A stretch of DNA of 59,087 nt, filler included, from Jimgerdemannia flammicorona (Eukaryota): NCBI GenBank assembly GCA_003990765.1. It is 3 parts of 3 records of this genome, joined end to end, with 100 filler letters (N's around TTAATTAATTAA, not from the genome) between each part and the next. Parts side by side here need not be neighbours in the genome. Positions count along the whole stretch, not along the records: positions 39,459 to 59,087 come from RBNJ01001893.1; 2 more parts are not named here. One strand, 5' to 3'. A program made the translations under genes and the position numbers. The notes under the pieces are model-generated. The model made no database searches. It had not been told where the DNA came from and worked only from the letters and a program-made list of their open reading frames with translations. Shown here piece by piece: positions 19,630 to 54,066 of the stretch (position 1 is its first letter; every line of letters begins with the position of its first letter).

Positions 19630-19729
19630 NNNNNNNNNNNNNNNNNNNNNNNNNNNNNNNNNNNNNNNNNNNNTTAATTAATTAANNNNNNNNNNNNNNN
19701 NNNNNNNNNNNNNNNNNNNNNNNNNNNNN
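19630..19729. other. Artificial 100-bp spacer (N run with TTAATTAATTAA)
   Basis: All-frame stop linker embedded in Ns; the flanking segments are each 19,629 bp. Confidence 0.95.
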
Positions 19730-21174
19730 AAAATCAAGATCTTATAGTCCTCAAACTTCTTATCTTTAAACTGTCTTGTTATCTCTTAGATTACTTGTGT
19801 AGAACTAAGGGTAAGTGAACTGGAACTGACTTTATTTTGAAGGAAATAAGAGGGGTATTTATATAAAATATAATTCAATGATTACTAAGTTATAAAGCTA
19901 AATATAAATTCCAATAACTAAATAAAATACTGGAATACAGAAAACTACAGTTGTCAATACAGATTCCAGTATTGGTATAGATAGTTGTATAAGTTCAGAG
20001 TGCTGGTAGAATTCAGTAGTACAGGAAAAGGATGCTGGAAGAATTCTGAGTCACACAAGATCAGAATACTAGTGGAAGGATTAACTGTTATATAGGAAAA
20101 GAATGCTGGCAGAATTTGGTGTCACCAAGAACTTTAAAGCAGAATATTCAGGACCATGGGGGCTTCATTCTCATTATTGCTGAAAGAGATGAGATCTGTG
20201 AACATTTCATCTGTCTCATTATGTAGGTTGTGCAGAATGATGTCATCATTAATAACATTATCATGTTTAGTGATAGTGGCTCTCCAATCTATAACATTCT
20301 CTTCTACAAAATAAGGAACAAATATAGAGTCTTGGAAAGATCTAACCTAGATGCTGGGGTCTTGAAATGCTAATATCAATCCTTGTAGAAACTGATCTGG
20401 GTTGTTCTGAAGGATGGAATACCAGAACTCTTCTATCTTATCACTATTGAGGATAATAGTGGACTGGACCTCTGTAGCTACCATAGCTTCTAGTGCATTG
20501 ATACAATAGACTGACAGATCCCTGAAGTCTGAGACTCTGGTATACTCTAAGTTAGAGATCAACTATGGTACATATCTGAAGATATGATGAATCTTCTTAG
20601 CTGTCCTTATTTCATGTATATCCATAGGAGTGGTATCTTATAACTCTTGAGGGCTGGCTTGAGGGAATTCCTGGCAGAGAAGGTTTCCTATTTTGTATTC
20701 TTGTCACATCTGGAGGTATTCAGTAGCAATGGTGATTCTTGTTTCTATCTCATGGCAGTAGAGAATATAATGATAAGGGTTACTAGTACCCAGATTGATA
20801 CTAGGAGTCCTTATGGTGCAGGTCCTTATAGCTCTTCAGATATCTTAGAACATCCTTTCTTGGACTGAGAGACCTTGGTGGTTTCTTAATCTTGAGGTTT
20901 GGCGAGCAGCAGACATTTTGTTTGTAATAAGTCTTTTGAGCTATTTCAGGATTAGTGGGTCTTGTTGAGTTGCTGCTACTATGGTTTCTTGATCCTTCTT
21001 TTATATTCCTCAAGATGTTTGTATTGTGGTCTCAATGACTTATAGTTAGTCATCATTACTCATCTTGTAGTCTGGGTAAGTCATGCTATATGATCTTCTT
21101 GTGCTCTAATCTAGTGGCTTGCAAGGAAAGGCTGTCTCTTGTACTGATATCATCATTCTGAGGTCACCATTACA
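19730..21174 (-). repeat. 3' LTR of B copy 1 (truncated by the spacer)
   Basis: Minus strand CAGGAAGAAGA (PPT) then TGTAATGGTGACC; homologous to the other three B LTRs. Confidence 0.88.
20134..20916 (-). pseudogene. LTR-encoded accessory ORF3 (B family), unknown function
   Basis: 783-nt frame from ATG to ...PMVLNILL*, with transition-derived stops; homologous to 28766-29548 and to family C ORF3. Confidence 0.75.
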
Positions 21175-26882: not shown

Positions 26883-28447
26883 TGTCACATAGTAGTCACT
26901 AAGTCCTTCAAATATATCTGATTCTCTTCAAAGTATATCTCTTAGACTAACTCAAGTTTGTTATAAGTAAGTTCTTATTAGAGTTCCTTCCCAAGGTCTT
27001 ATAGTTCTCAAACTTCTTATCTTTAAACTGTCTTGTTATCTCTTAGATTGCTTGTGTATAATTGAGAGTAAGTGAACTGAAACTAACTTTATTTTGAAGG
27101 AAATAAGAGGGGTATTTATATAAAATATAATTCAATAGTTGCTAAGTTATAAAGATAAATATAAATTCCAAAAACCAAATAAAATACTAGAACACAGAAA
27201 ACTACAGTTGTCAGTACAGATTTCAGTATTGGTACAGATAGTTGCACAAGTTCAGAGTGCTGGTAGAATTCAGTAGTATAGGAAAAGGATGCTGGAAGAA
27301 TTCTGAGTTATACAAGATTAGAATGCTAGTAGAAGAATTAACTGTTACACAGAAAAAGGATACTGGCATAATTCAGTGTTACCAAGAACTTTAAAGCAGA
27401 ATTTTCAAGAATATGGGGGCTTCATCCTCATCATTGCTGAAGGAGATGAGATCTGTGAATATTTTGTCTATCTCATTGCATAGGTTACACATTTTGCATA
27501 TGTTACATGGAATGACATCATTGTCAATGATATCATCACATTCAGTAGCAGGGGCTCTCCAATCTATAACATTCTCTTCCACAAAATAAGGAACAAATGT
27601 GGGGTCTTGGGGAGGTCTAACCTGGATGCTGGGGCCTTAGAATACTGAGATCAATCCTTGCAGGAACTGATCTGGGTTGTCCTGGAGGATGAGATACCAG
27701 AACTCTTCTATTTCATCACTATTGAGAGTGATAGTAGACTGGATCTCTGTAGCTATCATGGCTTCTAGTGCATTTATAAGACAGACTGACAGATCCCTGA
27801 AGTCTGAGACTCTAGTATACTCTAAGTTGGAGATCAATCATGGTATATGCCTGAAGATCTGATGAATCTTCTTAGCTGTCCTTATTTTATATATATTTAT
27901 GGGAGTGGCATCTTGTAGCTCTTGAGGGCTGGCTTGAGGAAATTCCCATAGAGGAGGTTTCCTATTTTGTATTCTTGCTACATATTGAAACATTTGGTAG
28001 CAATGGTGATTTTTGTTTCCATTTCACAATAGTAGAGGATATAATAATAAGGATCACCAGTACCCAGGTTGACACTAGGAGTCCTTATGATGTGGGTCCT
28101 TATGGCTCTTCAGATGTCTTGGAACATCCTTTTCTAGACTGAGAGACCTTAGTGGTTCCTTGATCTTGAGATTTGATAGGCAGCAGGTATTTCATTTGTA
28201 ATAAGTCTTTGAGCTATTTCAGAATTAGTGGGTCTTGTTAAGTTGCTGCTACTGTGGTTTCTTGATTCTTTTTTTATATTTCTCAAGATGTTTGTATTGT
28301 GGTCCCAATGACTCACAGTTGGTCATCATTACTCATCTTGTAGCCTGGGTGAGTTATACTATATGATCTTCTTGTACTTCAATCTGGTGGTTTATAAGGA
28401 AAGGCTGTCTCTTATGCTAATATTATCATTCTGGGGTCACTATTACA
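26883..28447 (-). repeat. 5' LTR of B copy 1 (~1565 bp), containing an ORF3 copy at 27391-28190
   Basis: TGTCAC...TATTACA termini; PBS-like sequence adjacent. Confidence 0.9.
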
Positions 28448-28507: not shown

Positions 28508-30056
28508 TATAATAGTGATCTCAGAAGGATGATATCAGCACAAGAGACAGCCTTTCCTTACAAGCCACCAGATCAGAGTACAAGAAGATCATATAGTATG
28601 ACTCACCCAAGCTATAAGATGAGCAATGATGACTAACTGTGAGTCATTGGGACTACAATACAAATATCTTGAGGAATATAAAAGAAGGATCAAGGAACCA
28701 CAGTAGCAGCAACTCAACAAGACCCACTAATCCTGAAATAGCTCAAAAGACTTATTATAAACAAAATGCCTGCTGCTTGCCAAACCTCAAGATCAAGGAA
28801 CCACCAAGGCCCCTCAGTTGAGAAAAGGATGTTCCAAGACATCCAAAGAGTCATAAGGACCTGCACCATAAGGACTCCTAGTATCAACCTGGATACTGGT
28901 GACTCTTATCATTATATCCTCTACTATTATGAGATGGAAACAAGAATCACCATTGCTACTGAATGCCTTCAGATGTGGTAAGAATATGAAATAGGAAACC
29001 TCCTCTGCTGGGAATTCCCTCAAGCCAGTCCTCAAGAGTTACAAGATGCCACTTCTATAAATATATGTGAAATAAGGACAGCTAAGAAGATACATCAGAT
29101 CTTTAGGTATGTACTATGGTTGATCTCCAACTTGAAGTATACCAGAGTCTCAGACTTTAGGAATCTGTCAGCCTATCATATCAATATACTAGAAGCTATA
29201 GTAGCTACAGAGGTCCAGTCCACTATCACCCTCAATAGTGATGAGATAGAAGAGTTCTAGTATCCCATCCTCCAGGACAACCCAGATCAGTTTCTGCAAG
29301 GATTGATCTCAGTATTTCAAGGCTCTAGCATTCAGGTTAGACCTCCCCAAGACCCCACATTTGTTTCTTATTTTGTGGAAGAGAATGTCATAGATTGGAG
29401 AGCCCCCACTACTGAATATGATGATATTATCAGTGATGATATCATCTTACATGACCTATACAATGAGATAGATGAAATGTTCATAGATCTTATCTCTTTC
29501 AGCAATGACAAGGATGAAGCTCCCATGGTTCTGAATATTCTGCTTTAAAGTTCTTAGTGATACCAAATTCTGCCAGCATCCTTTTCCTGTGTAACAGTTA
29601 ATCCTTTTACTGGTATTCTGATCTTGTGTGACTCAGAATTCTTCCAGCATCCTTTTTCTATACTACCAAATTCTACCAGTACCCTGAACTTATACAACCA
29701 TCTATACTAATACTGGAATCTATACCAACAACTGTAGTTTTCTGTATTCCAGTATTTTATTTAATTATTGGAATTTATATTTAGCTTTATAACTTAGCAA
29801 TTATTGAATTATATTTTATATAAATACCTCTCTTATTTCCTTCAAAATAAAGTCAGTTCCAGTTTACTTATCCTCAGTTCCACACAAGCAATCTAAGAGA
29901 TAACAAGACAGTTTAAAGATAAGAAGTTTGAGGACTATAAGATCTTGGAAAGGCACTCCAATAAGAGCTTACTTATAACAAAATTGAGTTAGTCTAAGAG
30001 ATATACTTTGAAGAGAATCTGATATATTTGAAGGACTCAGTGACCATTACATGACA
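28508..30056 (+). repeat. 5' LTR of B copy 2 (~1550 bp)
   Basis: T(A)TAATAGTGA...CATGACA; direct repeat of 35735-37266. Confidence 0.9.
28766..29548 (+). pseudogene. LTR-encoded accessory ORF3 (~260 aa), unknown function
   Basis: A single frame MPAACQ...ATECLQMW*EYEIG...TAKKIHQI..ISNL.Y..DF..LQDNPDQFLQGL...VIDWRAP...FIDLISFS..EAPMVLNILL*. The internal stops are transition-type. Confidence 0.8.
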
Positions 30057-30085
30057 ACTTAGTGCCCATTGGCTGGTGATTTAAG

Positions 30086-33000
30086 ATGAATCCCTCACTT
30101 TTAAGCTGAAAAACAAATCACTACCACAATAACTACTCTGGCTACAAGAGTTATCTCTGTAAGAATTCAAGACAAGATAGAAATGTATCCCCCCACATTC
30201 TATAGATATACTACTGAAGAGTCAATCCTGACCTTCATTGAAGACTTTGAACAATTCGCTGCTATGTGAGTCCTCAATGTGGATGCACAATTGGCCCTTC
30301 TACCAGTCAGCCTCAGAGGACCTGCCAGAGATAAGTTCAATATAGCCACTATTGCTGATGCTGGTGTAGCCAGACTTGTCAACATGAAGACCTTTCTCAG
30401 AACTACATACTATACTGAAGAGATCAAGTAAGCTCTCAAGGATTAACTCAATACTATCTGCCAGAGACTCAGTAAAGATCCCAACTCATTTTATATCTGA
30501 ATCTGCCATCAGATTGTCTTGGCTGGCTGTGATGACTACCTCAAGAAATAAATAGCAGATTCAACCTTTCTCAAAGGAGTCCACTCTGAAATTGTCCTAG
30601 CAATCTGGTCTACCCCAGCTATACTGATCCTTGATCAAAAAGTGGTCTTTGCATAGAGATATTAGACTGCCAGACACCCTGCCAAACACTCAATAGAGAA
30701 AATAACTAGCATCAAAATGGAGCCATCAAAGCCAACTAGTATCATACCTATCACAGTTATAAACAGACAATCATCCCCACCTACCCCCAAGGCAGCCAAA
30801 GCTGACCCAGTAGAGGAACTTGCCAAGCAGTTTACTGAGATGACTGCACACCTTAGTGATATTGTTAGAGAAGTCTAAAGCACTAACAGGAGACCAGTAT
30901 AGAGATTTGTAGCTACTATAGAAGAATACAATATTACATACTTCAGATATAGAGAAGAAGGCTACTATGTAAAGAGTTGCATGATAAAAATAAGATATAG
31001 AGCCCAACTAAGTAATACTATCAGAATCAGAGAACAAATCAATATAGTAGTCATCAAGGAGATTGGTGACACTGATGATGAAGAATACTATAAGGAGCCC
31101 AAATTCTACCCTATTACTAAAGGTACCAGAACCCAGTCTAAGCCCTATGATAAGAAGAGCAACAGCAAGCCAGTTGGAAGACTGAAGAAGACTCCAGCTA
31201 TCACTATTCAAAGTAAGACCCAATCTGAGGAGATTGATCAAGATATGGAGTTAGATGAAGCTGCTCACCAAATCATTGAAGGTACTACTCCAGTCTCAGG
31301 CAAAAGTAATAGTAAGAAGGAACAGAAGCTGTGCAAGACCAAGATCTACTAGTATAATATCTACAAGGATCTTAAGGAACAGAAGATCAATGCTACTTTT
31401 GGACAGCTAGCTGAAGTCCCTGCCTTCAGATAGCAGTTGAGAGTAGGACTTGCAACCACTATCAAGAACCAAGAATACAAGATCATAGAAGCTCACAATA
31501 CATAAGAAGATGATCAAGAAGACTCAGGCAAAGAATCTGAAGACCAGTGCAGAACATCAGCCTATACCCCATATTAGATCAAAGATTGTATCTTTAATGC
31601 CATCATTGATACTGGTGCTGGAGGATGCCTTATGAGTAAGAAGACAATTGACCACTTAGGCTGGGACATTGAAGAGTCCACCAAGATGGTCTATGTTATA
31701 GCAGATAGTATATGAGCTACCCCCCTTGGCAAAATCCAAGAAGTCCCATCAAGATAAGAGGAGCTATCATCCCAGTAGATGTGATTGTTATAAGTGCCAC
31801 CAACTATGACACCCTCATTGGCAACTAATGACTTCATAAGGCCAAGGCCATCATTGACCTCAATGTCCAGAAGATATAGATCAACTATAGAGGAAGAAAG
31901 ATACAAGTCTCTATCAATGTCCACAAAGGAGTTCTACTAGATATGGAGGAAGGAGATGAAGAGGACACAGAAGTCTTCATATACTCAGTGAACAAGAATA
32001 AGAATAAGACACCCAAGCTCACAGATGAGCAGTGGTACAACAAGATTATCAATAGCTATGCTCCTCAAGAAAGATACCCCCATGATACTAGGATGTACTA
32101 CTCTGAACACCAGAATGACTGCTGGTTCTGTATCAGTGATGTCAGGAAAATCCACCAATAGAAGCATAAACAAGAAGCTGCTGAAGCAAAAAGGAAAGCT
32201 GAAGAAGATGACTAGTTCCCAGAGCTTCAAGCTGACAGTGATGATGAGGAGAAATAAGAACCAGACATCATCCTCAAGGTCAAGAAGTTTTACCCCAAAG
32301 CTAAGATCCTAGAATATAAGACTGAAAGAGTCATAAGAATGGACCTTACCAGTATTCAAGATACTACCCTTGAACCATAGACCACCACCCTACTTGGCAC
32401 TGGAATTGAAGTCAAGTTGCCAGAAAACTATACTAGATTTATCAAGATCAGGAGCAGTCTGGCCAAAAGCAAAATCTCAGTTGAAAGAGGAGTAATTAAT
32501 CCTGATTACACTGATGAGATCTTCCTCATAGTCAGGAATTACAACCCCACTACCCCATTTGAAGTCAAGAAGTATGACAGAATTGGCCAGATGCTGATCC
32601 ATGAAATCAAGAAGCCCAAGATCACCAAAGCCATCAAACTCATCAAGACTAAGAGAGGAGAACAAGGCTTTAGATCTACTGGAAGAGAAGCCTATACTAC
32701 CACTAAGATTACTGAACTTGAGCACAAAAAAGACAAGGACCAGAACAAATATATATATACCATTGGAGAAAACTTTCCTCTAGAAGAACAGCTTCTCAAG
32801 ATCCAGCATCAGAATGAAGGAGTACTTACTATAGACTTCAGAAATATCCACAATCAAGAACTCAAGTACTATTATGAAGTTGACACTGATGATACCAAGC
32901 CCATCTACCAGAAAGCCAGACCTATACCACCTGCCTACAGAGAATGGCTGTGAGCAGAACTCAAGGAAATAGAATAAGCTGAAATCATCAAGCAAGCTAT

Positions 33001-35370
33001 CAGTCCCAGGGCTTTATCCATTGTTCTTGTCCCAAAGAAAGGAAGTGAGTCTGGAGAGTTTATCTCAAGACTTTGCATTAACTATAGAAAGCTCAATACA
33101 ATCACTAAGAAGGATAGGTAGCTCTTCTCAAATATTCAAGAAATCCTTACCACCCTTGAAAGTGAAGCCAAATACTATACTACCTTGGATCTGTTTTCAG
33201 GCTTCTATCAGATTGGTCTCACTCAAGATACCAGTGAGAAATCAGCCTTCATCATATCTGATACCACCTATATCTACCTGCAAATACTATTTGGAATGTG
33301 CAATGCCTCAGTAAGTTTTCAGCAAATGATGAACAGAGTCTTCAGCAATGAGATTGGAAAATGACTCTTTGTCTATATTGATGATATAATCATCTTTAGC
33401 AATAATATATCAACCATATACAGCTAGTCCTCAAGAAGCTCAAGGAGTATGACCTCTACATCAAGCCTAAGAAGTGCAAGTTTGTAGCTCAGGAAATCAC
33501 CTACCTAGGACACCTCATCAATCAGACTGGAATCCATACAGACTCCATGAAGATTGAGGCTGTTGTAGTCTATCTAAGATCCAGAACAACTACAGAAGTC
33601 CATGCCTTCCTTGGACAGGCCTCCTACTACAGAAGATTCATCAAAGAATACTCCAACATTACAGCACCTATCTATGAGCTACTGAAGAAGGAGACCTAAT
33701 TCAAATAGACCAAGAAATACCAAGAAATCTTCAATAAACTCAAGACCAGATTGACCCAAGAACCCATCCTCAGAAGACTAGATTGGAACCTAGAGTTTAT
33801 TCTGCAAGTACTATAGAACTTGGAGCAGTCCTAGCTCAGAAGAAAGATGGACATAAATATGTCATCTCCTATGCAAGCCAAGATACCTACAGAGCAGAAC
33901 AGAACTATAAGTCATGTAAGCTCAAATGCTTAGTAGTAGTTTGGGCAGTAGACAAGTTCCACTACTATCTAGCCAGAAAATACTTCACTATTCAAATAGA
34001 CTATTCCACTCTTGTCTGGCTATTCCACACTCTGAACCCCAAAGAAATATATATCAGATAGATCTACAGACTACAAGATTATGACTGTACTATCAAGCAC
34101 CACCCAGGAAGAACCAATGCCAATGCTGATGTACTCTCAAGGATACCCCAAAACACTCTCATCAAGACTATTTAATATGAATAAGAAGTTATACTATGGA
34201 TTAATCAGCTATCTTGAGTAGCAGAAGATGCCCAATCACCTCAAACCCTGGACAATCACCATCATCAACTGAACTTGGAAACAGTTTGAACTAGATAACA
34301 CCACACTCAGAAAAGGAGAAAAGCTTGTAATATCTGAATACAAGAAGTATCAAGTAATGAAGGAAGTACACAAACAAGGATACCTAGGAGGAATCAATAC
34401 ATACAATAAGATAAAAAGAACCATGTGATGGCCCAAGATAGAAGAAGACCTGCACCAATTTGTCAAAGAATGTGACAAGTGCCAAAAACAGAAACAAGAT
34501 CAGCAAGACCAGGTACCTGAATCATCAAGAATTGAGTCTATCTCCTTCCACCACATCACAATAGATATTATTGGGCCACTATCAGTAATACTATTAGAAA
34601 ACCACTATGTTATAATTATTATAGACCTCTTTACCAAATAGATAGAAGTAGGAGCATTACAAGAAGTCAATGCCCTCTCTGTAGCTGACTTCCTGCACTG
34701 AGAAATCATCTGTCACTACAAAATACCAAAGCAAATCACTACAGACTGCAGTATAGAATTTGTCAATGGATTCCATGAGATAATATATCAGAAATATAGG
34801 ATTCAGCACATCAAGACCACTACATACCACCCTCAAGGAAATAGATAGACAGAGAGAACCAACAAGACCCTCAAGAACATCCTGATGAAGATCTCAGACA
34901 CATATGAGAATTGGGATAACTATCTCTCAACTGCCCTCTCTGTCCTATGAGATATACAGTTACAGAATACACACTTTATCCCAAGAGAACTGCTCTTTGG
35001 AGATGATTCTGATAGAATCTCAGTCACAAATCTAGACCTAACTTAGAGATAGGTTGACTCAGAAATCTAGAGACTATATAAAATCAGGAAGAAGGCTGAA
35101 GATTATATCATCAAGTTATAAGTACTGACAAAAAAGAATGCAGAAAAGAATCACAAGACTCTAGAACCCATCCAAATTAGAAAAAAGGTCCTACTGTATT
35201 GAAATATAGTAGAAGCCTTATGGTCGCAAAAACTGGACTCCAAATGAGAAGGACCCTGTTATGTACAAGATATCAAGAGAACTACCTTCTGGCTTAGAAA
35301 ACTCTCAGGGACTATACTGCCTACCACAGTACATAGGAACAGACTCAAGAAGTACTATGAACCTATATAA
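30086..35370 (+). pseudogene. gag-protease-CHCC module-dUTPase-RT-RNase H-integrase of B copy 2
   Basis: Protease IIDTGAGG ~31600; RT VYIDD ~33370; RNase H LGAVLAQ ~33820; integrase DIIGPL and TTYHPQGN..ERTNKTLK at 34560-34875; no chromodomain. Confidence 0.9.
32270..32685 (+). pseudogene. dut: dUTPase domain of B copy 2, between the protease and RT
   Basis: LKVKKF.PKAK..GTGIEVKLPENY...RSSLAKSKISVERGVINPDYTDEI...YDRIGQMLI...RGEQGFRSTG. Confidence 0.92.
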
Positions 35371-35734
35371 GAGAAGCAAAATGTGATAACTGCCCATGAG
35401 GTTCTAGTCCACAAATTGTAACAGCATGTCCCATAACTAGCAGGCAATCTGTCTGGACCATTCTCTAAGGGATATAGTACCAGCAACTACTCATTCATAA
35501 GACTTTCAAAGCCAGAGGAGTTTGAACCATCAACTGATTGATCAAGATCAGAATCAGGCCCTTGCTTTACATGAAGAGAGTGACTCTTCACCATTATGCC
35601 AAAATATATAGGTAAGACACCAGCCCATAAATACCACTTTTTGACCCCCTGCTAGAGGTTATAGGATCAGCAAATTTTTCAGGACTGGACCAATAAATAA
35701 GAATGTTCAAGAAGATCCTTATTCAGGAGGAAGA

Positions 35735-37266
35735 TATAACAGTGACCTCAGAATAATGATATCAGCACAAGAGACAGCCTTTCCTTATAAGCCACCAGAT
35801 CAGAGCACAAGAAGATCATATAGCATGACTCACTCAGACTACAAAATGAGCAATGATGACCAACTGTGAGTCATTGGGACCACAATATAAATATCTTAAG
35901 GAATATAAAAGAAGGATCAAGGAACTGCAGTAGCAGCAACTCAACAAGACTCACTAATCCTGAAATAGCTCAAAGACTTATTATAAACAAAATGCCTGCT
36001 GTCTGCCAAACCTTAAGATCAAGAAATCACCAAAGCCTCTCAGTCCAGAAAAGAATGTTCTAAGATATCTAAAGAGCCATAAGGACCTATACCACAAGGA
36101 CTCCTAGTGTCAACCTAGGTACTGATGAACCTTATCATTATATCCTCTACTGCTATAAAATGGAAACAAGAATCACCATTGCTATCAAATACCTCCAGAT
36201 ATGGTAAGAATACAAAATAAGAAACCTCCTCTGCTGAGAATTCCTTCAAGCCAGCCCTCAAGAGCTACAAGATACCACTTCTATGAATATATGTGAAATA
36301 AGGACAGCCAAGAAGATTTATCAGATTTTCAGATATATACTATGTCGATCTCCAACTTAGAGTATACCAGAGTCTCAGACTTCAGAGATCTGTCAGCCTA
36401 TTATATCAATGCACTAGAAGCCATGGTAGCTACAGAGGTCCAGTCTACTATCACCCTCAATAGTGATGAGGTAGAAGAGTTCTGGTATCCCATCTTCCAG
36501 GACAACTCAGATCAGTTCTTATAAGAATTGATCTCAGCATTCCAAGGCCCCAGCATCCAGGTTAGACCTCCCCAAGACCTCACATTTGTTCCTTATTTTG
36601 TAGAAGAGAATATCATAGATTAGAGAGTCTCCACTACCAAATGTAATGACATTATCAGTAATAATATCATCCTATGTGACATATGTGAAATGTATGACCT
36701 ACACAATGAGATGGATAAAATATTCATAAATCTCATCTCTTTCAGTGATGATGAGGATGAAGTCCCCATGGTCTTGAACATTCTGCTTTAAAGTTCTTAG
36801 TGATACCAAATTCTGCCAGCATTCTTTCTAATCTTATATGACTCAGAATTCTTCCAGCATCCTTTTTCTGTACCACTAAATTCTACCAGTACTCTGAACT
36901 TGTGCAACCATCTGTACCAATACTGAAATCTATACTGATAACTATAGTTTTCTGAATTTAAGTATTTTATTTGGTTATTAGAATTTATATTTAGCTTTAT
37001 AACTTAGCAACTATTGAATTATATTTTGTATAAATACCCCTCTTATTTCCTTTGAAATAAAGTCAGTTCTAGTTCACTTACTCTCAATTCCATATAAGCA
37101 ATCTAAGAGATAACAAGACAGTTTAAAGATAAGAAGTTTGAGGACTATAAGACTTTGAGAAAGTATTCTAATAAGAACTTACTTATAATAAACTTGAGTT
37201 AGTCTAAGAGATACACTTTGAAGAGAATCTGACATATTTGAAGGACTCAGCAACCACTATGTGATA
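35735..37266 (+). repeat. 3' LTR of B copy 2, containing an ORF3 copy at 35992-36791
   Basis: Follows the PPT and ends GTGA(T)A; direct repeat of 28508-30056. Confidence 0.9.
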
Positions 37267-39358: not shown

Positions 39359-39458
39359 NNNNNNNNNNNNNNNNNNNNNNNNNNNNNNNNNNNNNNNNNN
39401 NNTTAATTAATTAANNNNNNNNNNNNNNNNNNNNNNNNNNNNNNNNNNNNNNNNNNNN
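39359..39458. other. Artificial 100-bp spacer (N run with TTAATTAATTAA)
   Basis: Same linker as at 19630-19729. Confidence 0.95.
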
Positions 39459-39911: not shown

Positions 39912-39943
39912 AGAGAATAATGATATATAACAAAGCCCATCCT

Positions 39944-41961: not shown

Positions 41962-42040
41962 TGCCTTAGTATCTTTTGCCAATAAATGCTTCGAAAGTAT
42001 GTTGAAAAGTGTGTGTAATGTGAATTGTAGCGGAGAAAGA

Positions 42041-43096
42041 TGCTGTATACTGCCTATATCCCTCAAGGAGCTCAACTTCTCCACCTCCTCCCATGCATCC
42101 AGACCTCCACTTCTCCCCCCTGCACTCCTCCCTCCATCAGTTCTGTCCAGATGCTGATCCCAAACCATATTAAAGTCCCTACCGAGAACATCGACCCCTT
42201 CCTCCAAGAGAATATCCTCCTCCAGCAGCTCCCTAATCCATGCAGTCCTCTCACCCCTACCTGTGGGGCAGTAGCAAGAGCCCACCTTCACCGATTCCCA
42301 CCCTGGCTGATGCCAATCTCCCCAGACCAAGTGATCACCCTAGCTCCTGATTCCCCCCAAGTCTCCCCTACCCTTCCTCACCAGAATCACCACTTTTCCA
42401 AACCAAGCAGTAGCCCCACCCCATTCCCTAGTCCACTCTACCCGATTGTCCTCATCCTCATACCGAACATCCTGTAGTAAAAAGAGATCAGCCTCCAATC
42501 CCTTGAGCCAAGTAAAAATGTTCTTATGCTGCCCAGAGCCCCTTAACCCATTCACATTCAAAGAGAAAATGTTGGTTGTACTATTCATAGAGAATAATGA
42601 TATATTGTGATTCCATCCTCTACAAGTCCACATTCGGCTCCTCCTGCACCAAGTCCAAGTCATGTTCAGTAGCTAGTTCCCTTTCCCCAGCTTCCTGTGC
42701 CTCCAACCCTCCCAGAAGTTCTACTATTGCCCCATCTTCTTGCTCCTCAAAGTCCTCATGTTACTCTAGACAGGCCTTCTGTCAGAGCTGCAAACCATGA
42801 CACTCTGCCCAACAGTAGGCTGCCCACTTATCAGTGACCACCACCAGCTCTGCCTTCCTCACCTCATCAACCTCATATTCCTCCTCCCCTAGGAAGATTA
42901 TAAGAATCTCCACCTTCAGTGCCTCTACCACTCCATCGCCATGCAGAATCCGCGCCCAATGCTCCTCAGGCATTACCTGCAGGTCCACTTCTCCCAATGC
43001 CTCTGCTGTGAGGTTATCCATCACCTTGCTCATCCACAACAAGTTCCCCACCTCCTTCCCTCCTGGAGTCCCCGGCTGCCCTGCATCCAACATCAT
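42041..43096 (-). mobile_element. Older, CpG-depleted fragment of the same LINE (ORF1 end + endonuclease)
   Basis: Colinear with 39459-40420. It is cut at 42040 by the younger LINE 5' end and at 43097 by the C1 LTR. Confidence 0.88.
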
Positions 43097-43881
43097 TGTA
43101 ATAACTCTCACTTCTACCCCTCTCTTATTCTTTGGATAATTAGGGAAGTGGACTATTACTTAGGGACTTAGTATACAATGTATACCAAGAAGCCTTCAGT
43201 TTGAGAAAGTGCTTGCTTATAAATAGTTGTAGTGGCAGTGCCTTCTGTTTCAAAGGTCTTTCTCTTGTGCCCTATTTCAAGGGTCTTATTCCTTGCTGTG
43301 CACAGACTGAATTCGCCTTGGAATTCAGGTTCAATGGGTTTACTTAAGTCTTTAGGGATTTATATACCAGTCTCAGTTCTGGCAGAAGTTAGCTAGGCTT
43401 CTGGAGTTTAGTCAGAAACACTAGAGTCACTTAGGTGTCATTATTAAGACTCAGGGGAATATGTGTGTGTGGGGGGGACTTGATTCTTGTATCAAGAACT
43501 GAACTAAAACTGCTTTATTTCAGATGGAAACTGGGGAGTATTTATACAAGTTGGTCTGTGATTTCTGACTAAGTATGAGTGACTAATTTGGTAACTATAA
43601 TGAGGTTTGTGATCATGACCTTTGTCAGGTGGTTTTTTGCAAAAAACATCTTTGTGATCAGGACCTCAATTACTAGGCAATGATCAGCTACTGTGGCAAC
43701 TGTTGCTGCAGTGCTGATTGTTGGAGATAAGCTGGATATCATTTTTCACGTCATTTTTGCATCGTTTGTCCATTTGTCATTTGTTATTCATATGTTGTGC
43801 TCGATCATTGATGACATCATTGCCAGTCATATGATCGCTTGTCACATCTTGTCTGTTTGCTCATTCATTCATTGTATTACA
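43097..43881 (-). repeat. 3' LTR of C copy 1 (785 bp)
   Basis: TGTAATA...TATTACA termini; PPT (minus AAGGAGGGAAGGA) adjacent. Confidence 0.92.
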
Positions 43882-43892
43882 TCCTTCCCTCC

Positions 43893-44726
43893 TTAGAAAT
43901 CAATGTCCTTGTTGATTCAGAAATTGAGAACCAGAGGAGAATCCTCCTCAGGGTTGTTGTCATCTTCTTCAATAGTAGGGGAGATAGTGATTGCTGATGG
44001 CTTGCTGTCCAGGGTAGAGAAGTCAATGAGATCTGCAAATGGTTCTTACATGGGGATGGATGCTGGTGTAGGGGTTCTCCATCTGATACAGTTGGGGCCA
44101 TCCAAGTAGGGTTCTTGATCTTCATGTCTAGGAATATCCATTCGGATGGGCTGTCCTTCAAAGAGGTCAGATAGGCCTTAGAACCATTGGTCAGGGTTGT
44201 CATTCAGGAGGGGGCTCCAGTAGGGTTCACAGTCAGTAGACTTGAGGGTGATCCATGAGTTGGCTTCTTGGGCTATCTTGATCTCTAGTTCATCAACCTT
44301 GAAGAAAGAGAGGTTCTGGAAGTCCTTCAGTTGGACATAATTGAGGTTTGGGATTGTGAAGAGTGCATGGCACATGATTCGATGGACCTTCTTGGCAAGT
44401 CTTTGCTTGCTTCCATCCAGGTGGGTCCAATCAGAGACTTGATCCATGGGCAGGTCCTTTGCCCATTGGAGGAGTTGGTGGCCAATCTCGTATTCATGCC
44501 AGATCTCTAGGCAGCTGGTAGCAAGGTAGGCTCTTTCAATGACATTATGGCTGTTGAGGACATAGTGTCCTAGGTCCTGGCTGGAGAGGTTAAGGGCCTC
44601 TGAGTAGCAGTTCCTTCTTTGGATAGCAACCTGGATGTGTCCAAAGAGGCAGTCAACCTGGCTTGGGAGGGGCTGACTATGGCGGGCAGTTTGGCGGTGG
44701 GTAGCTTGGCTGTGGGTAGCGGGCAT
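43893..44726 (-). pseudogene. Accessory ORF3 of C copy 1 (~280 aa), unknown function
   Basis: ORF 44178-44726 plus its in-frame continuation (GLSDLFEG..NCIRWRTP..FADLIDFS..SPLVLNF); ends at the PPT. Confidence 0.82.
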
Positions 44727-45369
44727 TCTTGTCTTGTCTTTTCTTTGTGAGGAGAGGGAGATGAAGGTTACGGGGTATTCTTGCTTTGGGTATTTATACT
44801 TATTTCCCCCTCTGGTGTGATCTTCCTTTGGTCATGCTTTCTAGTGAAATGTGTGACCTATTGCTGTAAGTGGGACATGTACTGGTCATATGAGAAAATC
44901 CTGATTTTAACGATATCGTCACTCATAGTTGTGGTTACACAGGGTTAACAGGTCTTGGTCCACTTTTTTTTTGTCTGGTTGGCACATTTGTGAGGACTGG
45001 CCATCCTTGTCTAGGGCAAGGGCTCCTATTGTCATGGCTGGGGGTTTGAACCTCTCGGAAATAGACATTTCTTGTAATCCGAGGCAATTTCTAGTAATAA
45101 TATCTGTCACATGAATGGACTTAGACTGGTTTTGACATTGTCAGCTTTCCTAAGTTCCACATGAAGCATCCATAATCATCCAGCGGAGATGATACAGATG
45201 GTGTGAAATGGAGTTGTTCAAATGTATTTTGCTGTACTGTGCTAGACTGTTCTTTACTCGAGCATCTTCTTGTTGATTATCCATAGTATTCCTTTTTCTG
45301 CAATGTTCAGTATTATATGTTTCCAGATAAAATATATGATATCCTTCTGCTCACTATGTGCTCTAATTC

Positions 45370-48300
45370 TCAGAGCTGCAGGTCCTTCCTTTGTGGGGGA
45401 GTAAGTGTTTCCATATAGTCCTGGAGGGCTTCGCGTGCATTCTTCAGAGCTTCTTCTTTTTCCCAAGTGGCGTCATGGGTGGGGTAACCCTTCCACTTGA
45501 TCAGGAAAAACTGCTTGACTGTTTTGGGATATTTGCAGACCTTGTGGTCAAGTACTTCCTCAATTTCGAATTCCTCATGATTATTGATCCTAATTGGGGG
45601 CGGTGGTAGAACTGTATGCTTGGGGAATGGGTTCTCATAGTAGTCCACCAATTGGCTGATGTGGAATACTGGGTGTACTCGGATATTGTGAGGGAGTTGC
45701 AACTTGTAGTTGACTTTGCTGATCTTTTCCACAATCTTATATGGTCCAATTCTTCTAGCATGGAATTTTTTAGCTAATTGTTGTACTAGGGTGTCTGGAT
45801 AGAGGTGGTCTGTTCTAAGCATGACCATATCACCAATGTTATAGGAGACTTCTCTTCACTTCAAGTTTGCATAATTGGTTTGGTAGTCTTGTGCTTCTAT
45901 GATGGCATCTCTTGTTATTCACATAAGGTCAGAAATGGTCTCGGCCAGATCTTGGGCTGCTGGGACTGTTGATTTCGCAGTAGTGCTTGGAGTTCTTGAG
46001 TGTTGATCATGGTTCAGGAAGAATGGAGTCTTCTTTTTGGAGGTTTACTGACTGTTATTGTAGGCAAACTCGGCATGGACTATATACTTGTCCCAATCAT
46101 TTTGCTTGTAACAGCAGAAGATGCTAAGCATCTGTTTGAGAGTCCTGTTGGTTTGCTTGGTTTGACTGTCAGTCTGAGGATGGTAGGCAGTAGAGAACTT
46201 CAGCTTGGTTCCATTGAGAGAGAAAAATGCCTTCCAGAAGTTGCTTGTGACCTTGGCATCTCGGTCAGATACAATAGTGCTAGGCATGCCATGTAGCCTG
46301 AATACTTGGTTGAGGAAAATCTCAGCAATCTCTGGTGCTATAGCGGTGGTCTTAGTGGGTGCAAAATGAGCTTGTTTACTTAGGCAATCTACGAATACCA
46401 CAATGGCATCCCATTCTGCCTTGGTCTTGGGGAGTTGGACAATGAAGTCTATTGCAATCTGATCCCAGTTGTGGCTCAGGATAGGCAAGGGTTACAGGAG
46501 TCCTGCTGGTAGTTTGTTACCACTTTTGAACCTTTGGCATATCTCACATGAGGCCACAAAGTCTTTGATATCCTTGGTCATCTTTGGCCAGTAGAACTCT
46601 CTTGAGAGGAGGCTGTAAGTCTTTTCAAAACCAAAGTGTCCTGCTGCAGGAGTATCATGGAGTTCCTGCATGATCTTGAGTTGCAGAGAATCATTGTTGG
46701 ATACAACCACTCTGTTATGGTCCCGGTAGATAAGTCCATCATGGTAAGTGAATCTCTTGGCCATTTGCCTCATGGGTTCTGGGACCTTGGCCTCTGGGTC
46801 TTGGCAGAATTGAAGGATGTTTGTCAGGGGGCTGTCCTGCTGATAGCCATCCTTGATCATCTGGATAAGGTCTCCAATTACCTCAATCATGAAGACAAGT
46901 TCATCTTCCATGTACCTAGAGAAACCATCAGCCACACAGTTGGTTTTGCCTGGGATATACTTGATTTCCATATCAAAGTTGGCAATGATTTCCATCCAGC
47001 AGGCTTGTCTGTGGGTCAGCATGGGCTTTGTGTGAATATACCACAGGGCATGGTGATCAGTATAGGCTACAAATGGTTGTCCTAAGAGGAAATAGCACCA
47101 TTCCTGGAGTGCAGTAACAATGGCCAGGAGTTCCTTCTCGTGGGTGGTATACTGGGTCTCAGCTGGCTTGAGCTTTTGGGAAAGATAGGCCACTGGGCAG
47201 TCTTCTTGGCTGAGCACTGCCCCAATAGCAATGTCAGAGGCATCTGTGGTCAGGGTGAATAACCTGGTAGAGTCAGGTGCAATTAGCACTGAGGCCTCAG
47301 TAAGGAGTCTCTTGAGATGGTCCATAGCCAGAGTGCATTCGGAGGTCCATTCAGTCTTAATGTTTACTCCTTTGTGTGCCAGATTGGTTAATGGGGCTGC
47401 AATGGCAGAGTATCCTTGGATAAACCTTCGGTAGTAACCGGCAATACTCAGAAAGCACTAGAGTAGCTTGAGGGTAGTGGGGATGGGAATATCCTTAAGG
47501 GCTGATACCTTTCGGGGGTCTACATTGATACCTTCAGCAGATATGATATGTCCTAGGTACTCAATCTGGTCCTGAAAGAACTTGCATTTGCTCATCTTGG
47601 CATAGAGCTGGTGTTCTCACAGAAGGGTCAGTACTTGTCTGAGGTGGGTGTAGTGTAGCTCTACTGTCTCACTGTAGATTAGTATATCATCAATATACAC
47701 AAGGACACAGATGTTGAGGAGTGGTCCAAAGATGTCATTCATCAGATACTGGAATGTTGCTGGTATATTGATCAAACCAAAAGGCATGACTCAGAACTGG
47801 TAGTGTCCAAACAATGTTCGAAAAGCTGTCTTCTCAATATCCTTCTCATCAATGAGAATCTGGTGATAGCCATTTTGCAAGTCTAGTAGGGAAAAGGTCT
47901 GGGCCTTGAAGATTTGGTGTAGCAACTCATCAATCCTAGGCAAGGCATACCAGTTCTTGATGGTGATCTTGTTGAGAGCTCTGTAGTCAATACACATTCG
48001 CAGAGAGCCATCCTTCTTCTTGACAAATAGAATGGGGGCTCCAAATGGAGAGCGGCTGGGTTCAATATATCCTTGGGCCAGTAATTTGGTCAATTGATCC
48101 TTGAGGGTCTAGAGCTCAGATTGGGCCAGTTGATAGATACTCTTATATGGGGGTTCAGATGCTGGGATAAGATCAATTCTATGTTGGATTTGGTGCTTGG
48201 GTGGAAGTTCTTGGGGGTTTTGGAATACATCTTGGAATTCTTCAAATAGTTCTTGAGCTTCTGTTGGAATTGGGCTACTTGTAGCTTCAGTGACTTCTTG

Positions 48301-51300
48301 TACTGTATAGATGAAGTTGGTGTTTCCCTTTTTTCGAGAGAGTCTCTTCATTTGAATGGCAGAGAGGATTTCGATTCTCTGGTGGTTGGTACCTTCCTGG
48401 GGTGTCAGAGTGATCTTTCTGCCTTCATGGGTCAGGTTAACCTCATTGGTTCTCCAGTTGATGTCTGGGTTGTGCTGGGTCAACCAGGCTTTTCCTAGGA
48501 TAATGTCCTGTCCTGGGAGGTCTACAATGCTGAAGTCCAACTTCTCTTGATATTTGTCAATCTTGAGCAAGAGATCTTCGCAGATCTTGGTCAATGGTGC
48601 AGTCTTTCCATCACCAAAGGTAACACTTCTTTTCTCAGTGGTGGGTCTGCTTCGGGCTCCAATACTCTTGGCAGTCTTGGTGCTGATATAGTTTCCAGTA
48701 GCACTACTATCCAGCAAGACATTGACATTCTGTCTATGGACTTGGCCTATGAACTTGATGCAGCTGTCCTCTTTCTTGATGGTATTGAGCTCTTCATCTT
48801 CATTGTTGTCCCAATTGTCAGTCTTCTCGAAGTCAGTTTCTCCCCATCCTTCACAAGGAGGGTTGTCTTGTTTGGGTTCCTCAGTCTGTTGGGCTTGGCG
48901 TATCTCAGATTGAATTTTGAAGACTTTGGAGAGGCATGCATGGCATTCACCAACATGTTCCATGTAGTACATTCGAATGGAATGAGGGTATCATCCACAT
49001 GGTGCATAACTATCTGCAATTCTCTTATACCAGTTTTCATCATCTTCCTTCATGGTAGTGATCTTCTGACTGGGAGGTTTGTTGGTTAATCCAAACCCTT
49101 TCTTGCCACGATCTGTCTAGGAGAGCTCGGGGACTTCTTCAATGATTGCTTGGACAATCCTTTGGCCTATTTTGACTTCAAATGATGTGTCTCCAAAATT
49201 TCGCAAGATGACACAGATTTTGCCAGTAAATCCTTGATCAACTACTCCTCCTCCTAGCCCAATGTTGAACTCTTTGGCTAGGCTGCTTCGCTCAGCAAGG
49301 CAGATGTATGTTCCTTTGGGAGCTTGTATTGCAATTCCTGTTCACACTGTAGCATTGGTACTTGGTGGGATGGTGAGGTCTTGGCTGCTGTAGAGGTCAT
49401 AACTAGCATCAATTGGGTGGGCCTTAGTAGGGATGGTAGCCTTATACCATATCTTCTGTACTTTGATGATATTCTCAGGGTTCTTCTTTCCTGGATCTTC
49501 TCCAATAACGGTAATGTTCTGGTTACTGGGTTCACCTGATCTGTTCTTCTTCTCAGGGCATCTGAATGAGATGTGTCCTGCCTTCTTACAGATGAAGCAT
49601 AATCCCTTTTCGCGAAGCTGCTTCTTTTCATCCTCAGTGGGAGGTCTGGGTCCTCTGGGATTTTGCTGGTTCCTTTGATCATTCCTTTGATCATATATTT
49701 GATCATTCCTTTGGTCATTACTTCTGGTAGGATTTCTCCTATCTTAGTTATCCTTCTTGTATTTTTAGTTTCATGGAGCTTATGTAGCAAGGATTTCATG
49801 GGCTCTTCTTTGTACTTGAGCAAAACACCGACAATCTTGGGGAAGACCTTGTTCCTTGATCTTCTGGGTGAGCCAGTCTGGTAGGGCTGCAAAAAGATGG
49901 TTGGCTCTGGTACCATTGATGGCCAAATTGTTCTCCTGATAGGTGAGTCCAACAGTTTTGAGATAGGCATCCATTCTAGTTGCAAAGGTCTCTAGATCTT
50001 CTTCGCCATTCTTGTGGAACTTCATCTGGGACAGTTTGTTCCAAATTTCTTGTATGTAGGCCGCATTTCAGAATTTGGTCAGTAGAAAGGCCTTGAGTCC
50101 TGGACCTGCTTCATAGTCATCCCAACCTGGTCTATTGTTGGCAGGTACTTGTCCATTGACTTGAGAGCAGTTTTCCCAGGTTACTGAGTATTGTTCCAAG
50201 GTTTGCCAGAATTCGGCTACTGTTCCAGTGAAAAATGTGACTACTGTTTTCACTTGTACTGCTGATATAGCAAACAGCTGTTGAAGGGTGCTGTTCTGGT
50301 TGTTGGTGAGCATTCCTATAGGCACTCAGTTGTCATTCCATTGGTTTACTCAGTAGCCTGTGTCAAATGCATTGATGAAGTTTTCAATGTCACTATTTTT
50401 TCCACTGAATGGTGGGATTCACAGAGTCTTGGTTGGTTTGTTCTATTCAGCAATCTGTCCTACTATCCCTGCTAGTGCTGCTAGCTGGATAGTCAGTGCT
50501 GCAATGTTGATATCTACCATTGTGTTGACTATTGGTGGTGGGTCTGTTGGGGTAGATTCTCCTGAAGATTGTTCTTTTTGGTGGGGTTGTGGTGCTGTAT
50601 GACTTGGGGTTACTTGATTCCCAGATATCAAGTCAAAGAGTCCTGTAAGAGAGGGTAAACCAAACCTCTATATAGGTGGCTGAGTTGGTTCTGGGGTCTG
50701 ATCTTCTTGACCTGTGGTTTCCTGATAACCTCCTAGGCCTACTGTTCCTTGTTGGCTATTGTCAGACTAGTAACCTATAGAGTCTTTGTCTGACTCCCTT
50801 CCCTGATGAGATAGTGCATCCTTGTACTAACTAGGTCCTTCAGAGAGGATATCAGTCTCTGGCTAGGTAGATGGGCCTGCTTCTTGTTCAGCAGTAGGGG
50901 ATGGTTGGCCTGCTTGCTCGTTCTCGTACCTGGTTATGGCAGAGGCATAGTATACAACTAACCTGTAGTAGAGGGAGGTCTTGGTAGGGGTATGATGATA
51001 TCTGTCAGAGACAATCCACTCAGCAGCTGCTTCTCTTGCAGTAGGGGGTGTGATATAGTATAAAAAATCCTAGGTAGCTGCAGCAGTAGATTCAGGGGTC
51101 CTAGTGGTTCCAATATGTCCTTGGAGGAGTTTTTAGAACCTACAGCAGCTGACAATATTCCTAAGTCCTGGGTGGTATGTCCTAAAGACCTGGTATAGAT
51201 CCTTGTAAGCCTGGTCAATTACAAGCTGGCGGGTCCCTGTATCTGTGGTTTCCTGGTACCACCTGGTCCTAATGGCAAGGGCTTCTCTGGCTCTGGTTTG

Positions 51301-51390: not shown

Positions 51391-51410
51391 GTAATCTGCT
51401 GCTACCAAGT

Positions 51411-51792
51411 TGTAATAACTTTCACTTCTACCCCTCTCTTATCCTTTGGATAATTAGGGAAGTGGACTATTACTTAGGAACTTAGTATACAATGTGTACC
51501 AAGAATCCTTCAGTTTGAGGAAGTACTTGCTTATAAGTAGTTATAGCAGCAGTGTCTTCTATTTCAAAGGTCTTTCTCTTGTGCCCTATTTCAAGAGTCT
51601 TGTTCCTTGTTGTGCACAGACTGAATTCACCTTGGAATTCAGGTTTAATGGGTTTACTTAAGTCTTTGGGGATTTATATACTGGTCTCAGTTCTGGCAGA
51701 AGTTAGCTAGGCTTCTGGAGTTTAGTCAGAAACACTAGAGTCACTTAGGTATCATTACTAAGACTCAGGGGAATATGTGTGTGTGGGGGGGA
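51411..51792 (-). repeat. Partial 5' LTR of C copy 1, interrupted by C copy 2
   Basis: Matches 43097-43478, then restarts as a new LTR at 51793. Confidence 0.88.
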
Positions 51793-52590
51793 TATAATAA
51801 CTCTCACTTCTACCCCTCTCTTATCCTTTGGATAATTAGGGAAGTAGACTATTACTTAGAGACTTAGTACACAATGTGTACCAAGAAGCCTTCAGTTTGA
51901 GGAAGCATTCGCTTATAAGTAGTTGTAGCAGCAGTGTCTTATCTTTCAAAGGTCTTTCTCTTGTGCCCTATTTTGAAGGTCTTATTCCTTGCTGTACACA
52001 GTCTGAATTCGCCTTGGAATTCAGGTTCAATGGGGTTACTTAAGTCTTTGGGGATTTATATACCAGTCTTAGTTCTGGCAGTAGTTAGCTAGGCTTCTGA
52101 AGTTTAGTCAGAAACACTAGAGTTACTTAGGTGTCATTACTAAGACTCAGGGGAATGTGTGTGTGTGGGGGAGACTTGATTCTTGTATCAAGGACTGAAC
52201 TAAAACTGCTTTATTTCGGATGGAAACTGGGGGGTATTTATACAAGTTGGTCCACGATTTCTGACTAAGTATGAGTGACTAATTTGGTAACTATAATGAG
52301 GTTTGTGATCGCAACCTTTGTCAGGTGGTTTTTTTGCAAAAAACTCTTTGTGATCAGGACCTCAATTACTAGGCAATGATCAGCAGCTATGGAAACTGTT
52401 GCTGTGGTGCCGATTGTCAGGGATAAGCTAAATATCGTTTTTCGCATTGTTCGTTTGCATTGTTCATCACTCGTTATTCATATGTCGCGCTCAATCATAT
52501 GATGACATCATCGCTGGGTCACGTGATCATTCTTGATCACTCGTCGCATCCAATCTGTTCACTTGTTTGTTCTATTACATCCTTCCCCCC

Positions 52591-53422
52591 TTAGAAATCA
52601 ATGTCCTCATTAATTGAGAAATTGAGAACCAGGGGAGAGAAAGGTGGGGAATCCTGCTCAGGGTTGTTGGCATCTTCTTCAGTAGTAGGGGGGGTGGTGG
52701 TTGCTGATGGCTCGCCATCCAGAATGGAGAAGTCAATGAGGTCTGCAAATGGTTCTTGCATTGGGATAGGTGCTGGTGTAGGGGTTCTCCATCTGATGCA
52801 GTTGGGGCCATCCAAGTAGGGTTCTTGGTCCTCATGCCTGGGAATATCCATTCAAATGGGTGGGCCTTCAAAGAGGTCAGAGAGGCCTTGGAGCCATTGG
52901 TCTGGGTTGTCATTCAGGAAGGGGCTCCAGTGGGGTTCACAGTCAGTAGACTTGAGGGTGATCCAGGAGTTGGCTTCTTGGGCTATCTTGATCTCTAGTT
53001 TATCAACCTCGAAGAAGGAGAGGTTCTGGAAGTCCTTCAGTTGGACATAGTTGAGGTTGGGGATTGCAAAGGGTACATGGCGCATGATTTGATGGACCTT
53101 CTTGGCAAGTCTTTACTCATTCCTGTCCAGGTGGGTCCAATCAGAGACTTGGTCCATGAGCAGGTCCTTTGCCCATTGGAGGAGTTGGTGGCCAAATCTC
53201 GTATTCATACCAGATCTCTAGGCGGCTGGTGGCAAGGTAGGCTCTTTCAATGACTTCACAGTGGTTGAGGACATAATGTCCTAGGTCCTGGCTAGAGAGG
53301 TCAAGGGCTTCTGAGCGGTGGTTCCTTCCTTGGATAGCAACCTGGATGTGTCCAAAGAGGCGGTCAACCTAGCTTGGAAGGGGCCAGCTACGGTGAGCAG
53401 TTTGGTGGTGGGTGGCAGGCAT
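52591..53422 (-). pseudogene. Accessory ORF3 of C copy 2
   Basis: ATG at 53422 (MPATHH...). ORFs 52852-53085 and 52591-52851 continue in one frame to ...NEDIDF* at the PPT. Confidence 0.82.
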
Positions 53423-54066
53423 TCTTGACTTGTCTTTTCTTTGTGAGGAGAGGGGGATGAGAGTTGTGGGGTATTCTTGCCTAGGGTATTTATACTTATT
53501 CCCCTCTCTGGTGTGACCTTCCTTTGGTCACGCTTTCTGGCAAAATGTGTGACCTGTTGCTGTAAGCAGGGCATGTGCTGGTCATATGAGAAAATTCTGA
53601 TTTCAAAGATCTCGTCACTCATAGTTGTGGTTACACAGGGTTAACAGATCTTGGTCCACTTTTTTTTTGTCTGGTTGGTGCATTTGCGAGGACTGGCCAT
53701 CCTTGTCTAGGGTGAGGGCTCCCATTGTCATAGCTGGGGGTTCGAACCTCTTGGAAATAGACTTTTCTTGTAATCCAAGACAATTCCTAGTAACAATATC
53801 TGTCACATGGATGGACTTAGACTGGTTTCGACATTATCAGCTTTCCTAAGTTCCATATGAAGTATCCACCATCATCCAGCAGAGATGATACAGATGGCAT
53901 AAAATGGAGTTGTTTAAATGTGTTTTGCTATACTATGCTAGATTGTTCTTTTGCTCAGGTATCTTCTTGTTGGTTATCCATAGTGTTCCTTTTTCTGCAA
54001 TATTCAGTATTATATGTTGTCAGATAAAATATGTGGTATCCTTCTGCTCACTATGTGCTCTAATAC

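Follow-up and report, generated by a model that had tools for sequence, protein, structure and literature searches.

The stretch of DNA analyzed here (hereafter the window, 59,087 nt) consists of three 19,629-nt segments joined by linkers of the form N44-TTAATTAATTAA-N44 at 19630-19729 and 39359-39458, and no feature crosses the segment joints. Segment 2 contains two elements of a Ty3 retrotransposon family, designated family B (elements B1 and B2), and segment 3 contains a second one, family C (Table 1). A WD40-repeat exon, with 100% identity to a protein of Jimgerdemannia flammicorona (Mucoromycota, Endogonales), was found in segment 1 at 15888-16253 (-). Positions 1-280 match 41774-42036 within a LINE-like, GC-rich (0.6) region at 39459-43093. 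An ORF of endonuclease-like type and a direct repeat of 960 nt (39459-40417 and 42136-43093) are located in this region, which adjoins the end of a family-C LTR at 43099.

The elements B1 (-) and B2 (28508-37266, +) are in head-to-head orientation, and 60 nt separate the two 5' LTRs (28447/28508). Self-alignment of family B gave the repeat pairs 19735-21174/26992-28447 and 28508-29947/35735-37250, with gag-pol between the members of each pair. The repeats start with T[G/A]TAATGGTGAC (T[G/A]TAAT) and end with ...ATGACA, and the 5' LTR is followed by a PBS-like site (ACTTGGTG/ACTTAGTG) and, ~130 nt further on, by gag. Together with the polypurine tract, these termini and the PBS-like site identify the repeats as the LTRs, ~1.54 kb in length, of two elements. 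Family C is arranged in tandem as LTR-internal-LTR-internal, with a period of 8.7 kb, and this array continues past the end of the window (59087). Its repeat ends in ...TTACA at both 43099 and 51410, followed at 51410 by ACTTGGTAGCAG, and the pol stop at 45370 is followed within ~100 nt by the start of its LTR; this start is only approximate because of the tandem array and the end of the window at 59087. In the middle family-C LTR, the last 380 nt, from ~45 nt past AATAAA to the LTR end, are tandemly duplicated (51413-51789 and 51795-52171; also 43096-43478).

Both carriers show the features of Ty3/Metaviridae elements, namely paired LTRs with TG..CA-type termini, a PBS following the 5' LTR, and a polypurine tract preceding the 3' LTR, and the pol order PR-RT-RNaseH-IN identified with Pfam in families B and C fits the same assignment. 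The TG terminus reads TA in some LTR copies, consistent with G-to-A hypermutation. Family C has the order gag-dUTPase-PR-RT-RH-IN-chromodomain, and its chromodomain (PF00385, E 4.4e-12 in Pfam) places it among the chromoviruses, whereas family B has the order gag-PR-dUTPase-RT-RH-IN and its internal region gave no chromodomain match in Pfam, so that it is not placed there. The dUTPase genes, at 49278-50313 (-) in C and ~32300-32680 (+) in B, lie on opposite sides of the protease. This difference agrees with the variable position of dUTPase among fungal Ty3 families described in a passage of PMC2864245. In a protein search, the best match of a pol piece from segment 3 was an 89%-identical environmental protein, with no named record, and an ESM Atlas search with the RNase H-IN piece returned uninformative taxa.

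Table 1. Positions of the retrotransposon features in the window, with the match spans of the LTR-ORF profile HMM
Feature	Position	Strand	Remarks
Family-A LTRs	3995-5496 and 9077-10837	(-)	Short relative of family C
Family-A internal region	5497-9076	(-)	
3' LTR of B1	19730..21174	(-)	Truncated by segment joint at 19729
LTR-ORF copy B1-3'	20134..20916	(-)	In 3' LTR of element B1; 6 stops; HMM match 20137-20916(-)
5' LTR of B1	26883..28447	(-)	26992-28447 in self-alignment
LTR-ORF copy B1-5'	27391..28190	(-)	In 5' LTR of element B1; ATG start lost; frameshift ~27945; HMM match 27427-28187(-), split over two frames
5' LTR of B2	28508..30056	(+)	T[G/A]TAAT...ATGACA; then PBS-like ACTTAGTGCCC, gag ~130 nt downstream
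TATA1 (TATAAAA)	28677..28683	(+)	89 nt before ATG of B2-5'
LTR-ORF copy B2-5'	28766..29548	(+)	In 5' LTR of element B2; 260 codons, 2 stops; HMM match 28766-29545(+)
Family-B internal region	30057..35734	(+)	gag, PR, dUTPase, RT, RNase H, IN
3' LTR of B2	35735..37266	(+)	Polypurine tract AGGAGGAAGA just before, 35725-35734
LTR-ORF copy B2-3'	35992..36791	(+)	In 3' LTR of element B2; frameshift ~36345 and stops; HMM match 35992-36785(+), split over two frames
Family-C LTR	43099..45280	(-)	~2.2 kb; end ...GTTATTACA exact at 43099; start approximate, 45233-45290
LTR-ORF copy C1	43893..44726	(-)	In 3' LTR of family-C element; 277 codons, 3 in-frame stops; HMM match 43914-44714(-)
TATA1 (TATAAAT)	44792..44798	(-)	72 nt before ATG of C1, no ATG between
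Family-C internal region	45370..50510	(-)	gag (CCHC), dUTPase, PR, RT, RNase H, IN, chromodomain
Middle family-C LTR	51410..53980	(-)	Common to both tandem elements; PBS-like ACTTGGTAGCAGCAG below 51410
LTR-ORF copy C2	52591..53422	(-)	In shared middle LTR of tandem C array; frameshift ~53195 and stops; HMM match 52612-53422(-), split over two frames
TATA2-AATAAA core, copy C1	43513..43546	(-)	TATAAATAC..TTTCC..GAAATAAAG; 346 nt past C1 stop
TATA2-AATAAA core, other minus-strand copies	52209-52242, 19830-19863, 27087-27120	(-)	
TATA2-AATAAA core, plus-strand copies	37029-37062, ~29819-29852	(+)	

A long ORF, hereafter LTR-ORF, was identified in families B and C. A six-frame scan of the whole window with its profile HMM (alignment A2) recovered exactly six copies and no further ones, at the positions given in a preliminary description of this DNA, and all six run in the sense direction relative to gag-pol, the copies of family C and of element B1 being on the minus strand. 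They correspond to six LTRs, two from each of the two family-B elements and two from the tandem family-C array, rather than to six elements that each have an ORF3 region of their own. Within the LTR, the ORF occupies positions 259-1041 in family B and ~560-1400 in family C. The preliminary description had placed an ORF3 in sense orientation outside gag-pol; the sense ORF was found, but the separate region between pol and LTR was not, as 6/6 copies lie inside LTRs. Consequently, there are two copies per element, since LTRs are duplicated at integration and each element thereby carries the ORF twice. No copy in the window is intact (0/6): the single-frame copies C1, B2-5', and B1-3' contain stops, and the other three have frameshifts, as shown by their split HMM matches.

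The LTR-ORF proteins of families B and C align end to end with 32-35% identity, in agreement with what had been proposed, and the MPA start and the matching sequence blocks cited earlier were also recovered. Between C1 and B2, tblastn gave 34% identity over 266 aa (E 1e-36) and blastp gave 84/265 identical residues (E 3e-42). In a 6x6 frame control (36 frame pairs), the pair +1/+1 scored 132 bits and the runner-up pair 44 bits, indicating that the B-C similarity greatly exceeds chance and is confined to a single frame.

The deduced product does not resemble an envelope protein. The maximum Kyte-Doolittle 19-residue mean was 0.43-0.92 in 5/5 proteins, revealing no hydrophobic segment, and neither a signal peptide nor a transmembrane anchor, by which an Env would be recognized, was found in these five proteins, as the preliminary description had held. 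The net charge is -19 to -27, with a mildly basic N-terminus and an acidic tail. The product is predicted to be soluble and strongly acidic, with a disordered acidic tail and a conserved ~215-aa domain for which a mostly helical structure is predicted at low confidence. The DLIxF motif previously pointed out in the acidic tail recurs as [DN]LIxF in 8/9 of the family sequences reaching that region, and P-x-[VI]LN[FI] occurs near the C-terminal end in 8/9 of the sequences reaching the tail. With Pfam, three of three copies matched no family above the cut-off, giving sub-threshold noise only, and a PDB sequence profile search gave 0 matches at E up to 10. AlphaFold2 models built from 10-row alignments were poor (mean pLDDT 48.2 and 54.6), and a Foldseek search of PDB with the better of these low-confidence models, which gave 0 matches at E <=0.001 (best E 1.2), is not interpretable. 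The earlier statement that the family is not a recognized one is thus in line with Pfam, the PDB profile search, Foldseek with the low-confidence model, and the ESM Atlas, all without a described match. A gag/capsid paralogue was considered and rejected (hhalign of A2 against the family-B gag, probability 0.04). Clathrin-box and SUMO-interaction motifs, as readings of DLIxF/VLNF, do not fit all sequences and are speculative.

Acidic tails with bulky hydrophobic residues are typical of acidic activation domains and of many docking motifs. From the composition and motifs of the tail, our best guess, a tentative one, is that LTR-ORF may encode a trans-acting regulator or an adaptor that recruits host machinery via its acidic-hydrophobic tail; such a regulator, again a guess, might for example transactivate the LTR of its own element.

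The copies in the window are dead, and their stops and frameshifts come from RIP-like C-to-T/G-to-A hypermutation. The members of LTR pairs diverge by 11.5-13.8%, with transition to transversion ratios of 169:7, 183:16, and 217:42 (up to 24:1), mostly C-to-T before A. B has an observed/expected CpG ratio of 0.01 and C one of 0.15, versus 1.06 in the genic stretch 12000-19600. The RIP-like pattern was observed in all repeats (e.g., 28508-37266 and 43099-59074), and in a Mucoromycotina fungus, should this be the host, it would be noteworthy.

Homologues of LTR-ORF were found outside the window. A HMMER search with a four-sequence LTR-ORF profile over 1,835,955,588 representative proteins returned five proteins at E <=0.001, four of these at E <=1e-30. 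The five homologue clusters hold seven sequences in total, among ~15 billion proteins, all from ENA or JGI metagenomes and either named 'hypothetical protein' or without a name, and the homologues listed have open frames of 138-342 aa. In addition, a word-index protein search with LTR-ORF gave one match, an ESM Atlas search returned unnamed clusters only, and 0 relatives were found in viral contigs and prokaryote genome contigs. One metagenome locus (L001) carries an intact 291-codon ORF that extends from MPALRT to MDIDF-stop.

Considering that 6/6 copies in the window are broken, that the Pfam, PDB, and fold searches gave no match, and that the AlphaFold confidence is low, LTR-ORF might only resemble a gene and be an open frame without function or a regulatory part of the LTR. 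We consider this highly improbable in light of the comparison with L001. Over 270 codons, C1 and L001 differ with pN 0.273 and pS 0.65, giving a dN/dS of ~0.22, a rough value since dS is near saturation and the nucleotide sequence of one intact homologue was compared; the decay of C1 after its inactivation can only have raised it. Differences per codon position 1/2/3 were 0.33/0.24/0.49, so that position 3 exceeds 1 and 1 exceeds 2, and the low ratio is confined to the reading frame (uncorrected pN/pS of 0.415 versus 0.55-1.45 in the five other frames). Moreover, five independent metagenome clusters contain intact ORFs of 247-342 aa, and the disruptions of the window copies agree with the transition bias seen in all repeats here (169:7). 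These results indicate that LTR-ORF is a genuine, once-selected protein-coding gene under purifying selection, with the direction of the dN/dS clear, which bears out the earlier suggestion of a selected gene. Very probably, therefore, LTR-ORF is a real gene located inside the LTR.

The ORF is flanked by a conserved TATA box on one side and the poly(A) hexamer of the LTR on the other. The upstream motif (TATA1) precedes the ATG by 72 nt in 2/2 C copies, by 88 or 89 nt in 4/4 B copies, and by 80 nt in L001. Where the start codon survives, the ATG of the ORF is the first AUG after TATA1 and has A at -3. The TATA1 motif occurs seven times in 5,349 nt (three LTR sequences), and by a hand calculation the chance of finding it in a 40-nt window in three lineages is ~1e-4. 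The nucleotide alignment of L001 with the family-C LTR starts at L001 position 287, just upstream of TATA1. Downstream of the ORF, a core of ~55 nt is common to the B and C LTRs (TTGTATAAATACYCC..TTTCC..GAAATAAAG(T)CAGTTYYAGTTCA); it is located 346 nt (C) or 268 nt (B) past the stop, and the LTR extends a further 420 or 200 nt. In both families, a second TATA motif (TATA2, TATAAATA) precedes AATAAA by exactly 27-29 nt, with ~20 further nt conserved, and this AATAAA is the sole AATAAA or ATTAAA of the LTR in most copies. The 34-nt core pattern gave five matches, compared with none in 100 shuffled sequences; a variant of this pattern is present in the sixth LTR. A blastn self-comparison (default scoring, word 11) revealed no nucleotide similarity between the B and C LTRs downstream beyond the ~55-nt core, and relaxed word-7 blastn of B versus C aligned ~410 nt within the ORF at 58%.

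The spacing of TATA2 and AATAAA looks like that of a short-R promoter, with a putative cap site at or just past the hexamer. In retroviruses with a short R, the cap site is located at or after the poly(A) hexamer. On this basis, the LTR-ORF gene would sit in U3, where a dedicated TATA1 72-89 nt upstream would drive a monocistronic mRNA that would be polyadenylated at the LTR's own AATAAA, ~300-370 nt past the stop. Genomic RNA would begin at TATA2, 27-29 nt before AATAAA, so that a single copy of the ORF, 3' of pol, would be included in it. An ORF in U3 with its own promoter, rather than in a long R, is in our judgment an evenly balanced call, with the transcription start that decides between U3 and R predicted from the TATA and AATAAA motifs.

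The same signals could also be arranged in another way. TATA2 may be read as an upstream poly(A) efficiency element of the kind known from yeast 3'-end signals; in that case, TATA1 would be the only promoter of the LTR, R would extend over ~1.2 kb, and the ORF would be the 5'-proximal cistron of a long-R leader. Use of the poly(A) site in the 5' LTR would then yield a short ORF-only mRNA and read-through would yield genomic RNA, with gag requiring splicing, reinitiation, or an IRES. The conservation of TATA1 in three lineages, the position of the ORF AUG as the first after TATA1 with A at -3, and the single AATAAA past the stop are all compatible with such a leader. However, an upstream ORF of 260-290 codons would strongly lower gag-pol translation, the TATA2-AATAAA spacing of 27-29 nt in both families suits a promoter, and an R of ~1.2 kb is far longer than any known to us. 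We therefore regard a long-R leader gene as unlikely. The reading that we prefer, to which we assign a probability of about 60%, is that of an accessory gene that a clade of dUTPase-bearing Ty3 retrotransposons carries within its LTRs, most likely in a U3 layout.

The two families that share this gene are deeply divergent Ty3 lineages, as stated before: B and C have 34.6% identity in RT-RH (over 341 aa), 24-27% in IN, and 24% in PR, and a comparison of their gag regions showed no detectable similarity except in the dUTPase stretch. The preliminary description had suggested that the gene was possibly exchanged horizontally, and a recent horizontal or recombinational transfer of the module between unrelated Ty3 families would account for an ORF that aligns end to end between elements with undetectable gag similarity and with differences in dUTPase position and chromodomain presence. 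Nevertheless, LTR-ORF is as conserved as RT between B and C, not more (32-35% versus 34.6%), IN identity is 24-27%, and the two families have their LTR termini, ACTTGGT PBS, and 55-nt core in common, which makes a recent exchange improbable. Vertical descent from an ancestor with an LTR gene would be sufficient to explain this equal identity and the shared termini, PBS, and core, and horizontal exchange is not needed. The sharing of these parts along with the ORF points to an LTR architecture that is homologous as a whole and old.

A third family, family A, has the same PBS as family C (ACTTGATAGCAG), a C-like gag, dUTPase, and a U3 stretch ~77% identical to that of C. The HMM scan and a check of its LTRs showed that LTR-ORF is absent from the family-A LTRs, and RT/IN are likewise absent. 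Family A is probably non-autonomous, and the presence of the homologous U3 stretch and PBS without the ORF suggests that the gene is dispensable for copying in trans.

Retrotransposon LTRs are usually treated as non-coding promoter and terminator modules. If the preferred reading of an accessory gene inside the LTR is true, the gene would be duplicated with every integration and kept in solo LTRs, and the annotation and masking of long fungal LTRs would change. As the LTR-ORF family is invisible in annotated proteomes, a targeted survey could reveal a sizeable hidden family. A more far-reaching idea, which we hold to be doubtful, is that each LTR might be an autonomous gene cassette (promoter, ORF, and terminator) from which a trans-acting factor would be expressed in 5' and 3' LTRs and even in solo LTRs. 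If so, this factor could act as a transactivator or against silencing on behalf of the whole family, as a retrotransposon 'public good' with a longer life than the element itself, and LTRs would gain a protein-coding role.

Additional ORFs of retrotransposons include the env-like ORF3 of Athila/Tat, ORF1 of Ogre, and the extra ORFs of bdelloid rotifer elements. Extra ORFs without assigned function can be common to divergent retroelement types, according to a passage of PMC5408684, and a figure legend on fungal chromoviruses lists an 'add. ORF ... unknown function' (PMC2864245). The Athila/Tat, Ogre, rotifer, and chromovirus ORFs are drawn in the internal region in the parts of the sources at hand, whereas LTR-ORF is located inside the LTR with its own TATA. 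The literature covered, which for PMC2864245 comprised passages of its text, described no conserved ORF that an LTR retrotransposon carries within its LTR. Among retrotransposon genes, a location in the LTR is highly unusual. LTR-ORF would represent a new protein family in Ty3 elements, extra ORFs of retroelements being already known as such.

Among the LTR retroelements, 3'-proximal accessory or regulatory genes such as HIV nef and HTLV pX overlap U3, and the foamy-virus gene tas/bel1 has its own internal promoter, in env, and encodes an acidic activation domain. The combination of an own promoter and an acidic domain in tas is reminiscent of TATA1 and the acidic-hydrophobic tail of LTR-ORF, for which a role in transactivation is putative. 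However, the tas promoter is internal, in env, and not in the LTR, and no homology to LTR-ORF was found. By position, the closest analogue would be MMTV sag, a sense ORF of ~300 codons that lies wholly in U3, enlarges the LTR to >1 kb, and is present in both proviral LTRs and once in genomic RNA, 3' of pol. The likeness consists in a sense ORF wholly within a long LTR, with the U3 assignment being motif-based here, and it does not extend to sequence (no Pfam family above the cut-off and no PDB sequence match). MMTV Sag is a type II membrane glycoprotein, in contrast to the LTR-ORF protein, which is without a hydrophobic segment, and the carrier here is a Ty3 retrotransposon without env in a fungal host. 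If our reading is true, U3-encoded genes such as MMTV sag would thus have in LTR-ORF a counterpart outside the retroviruses.
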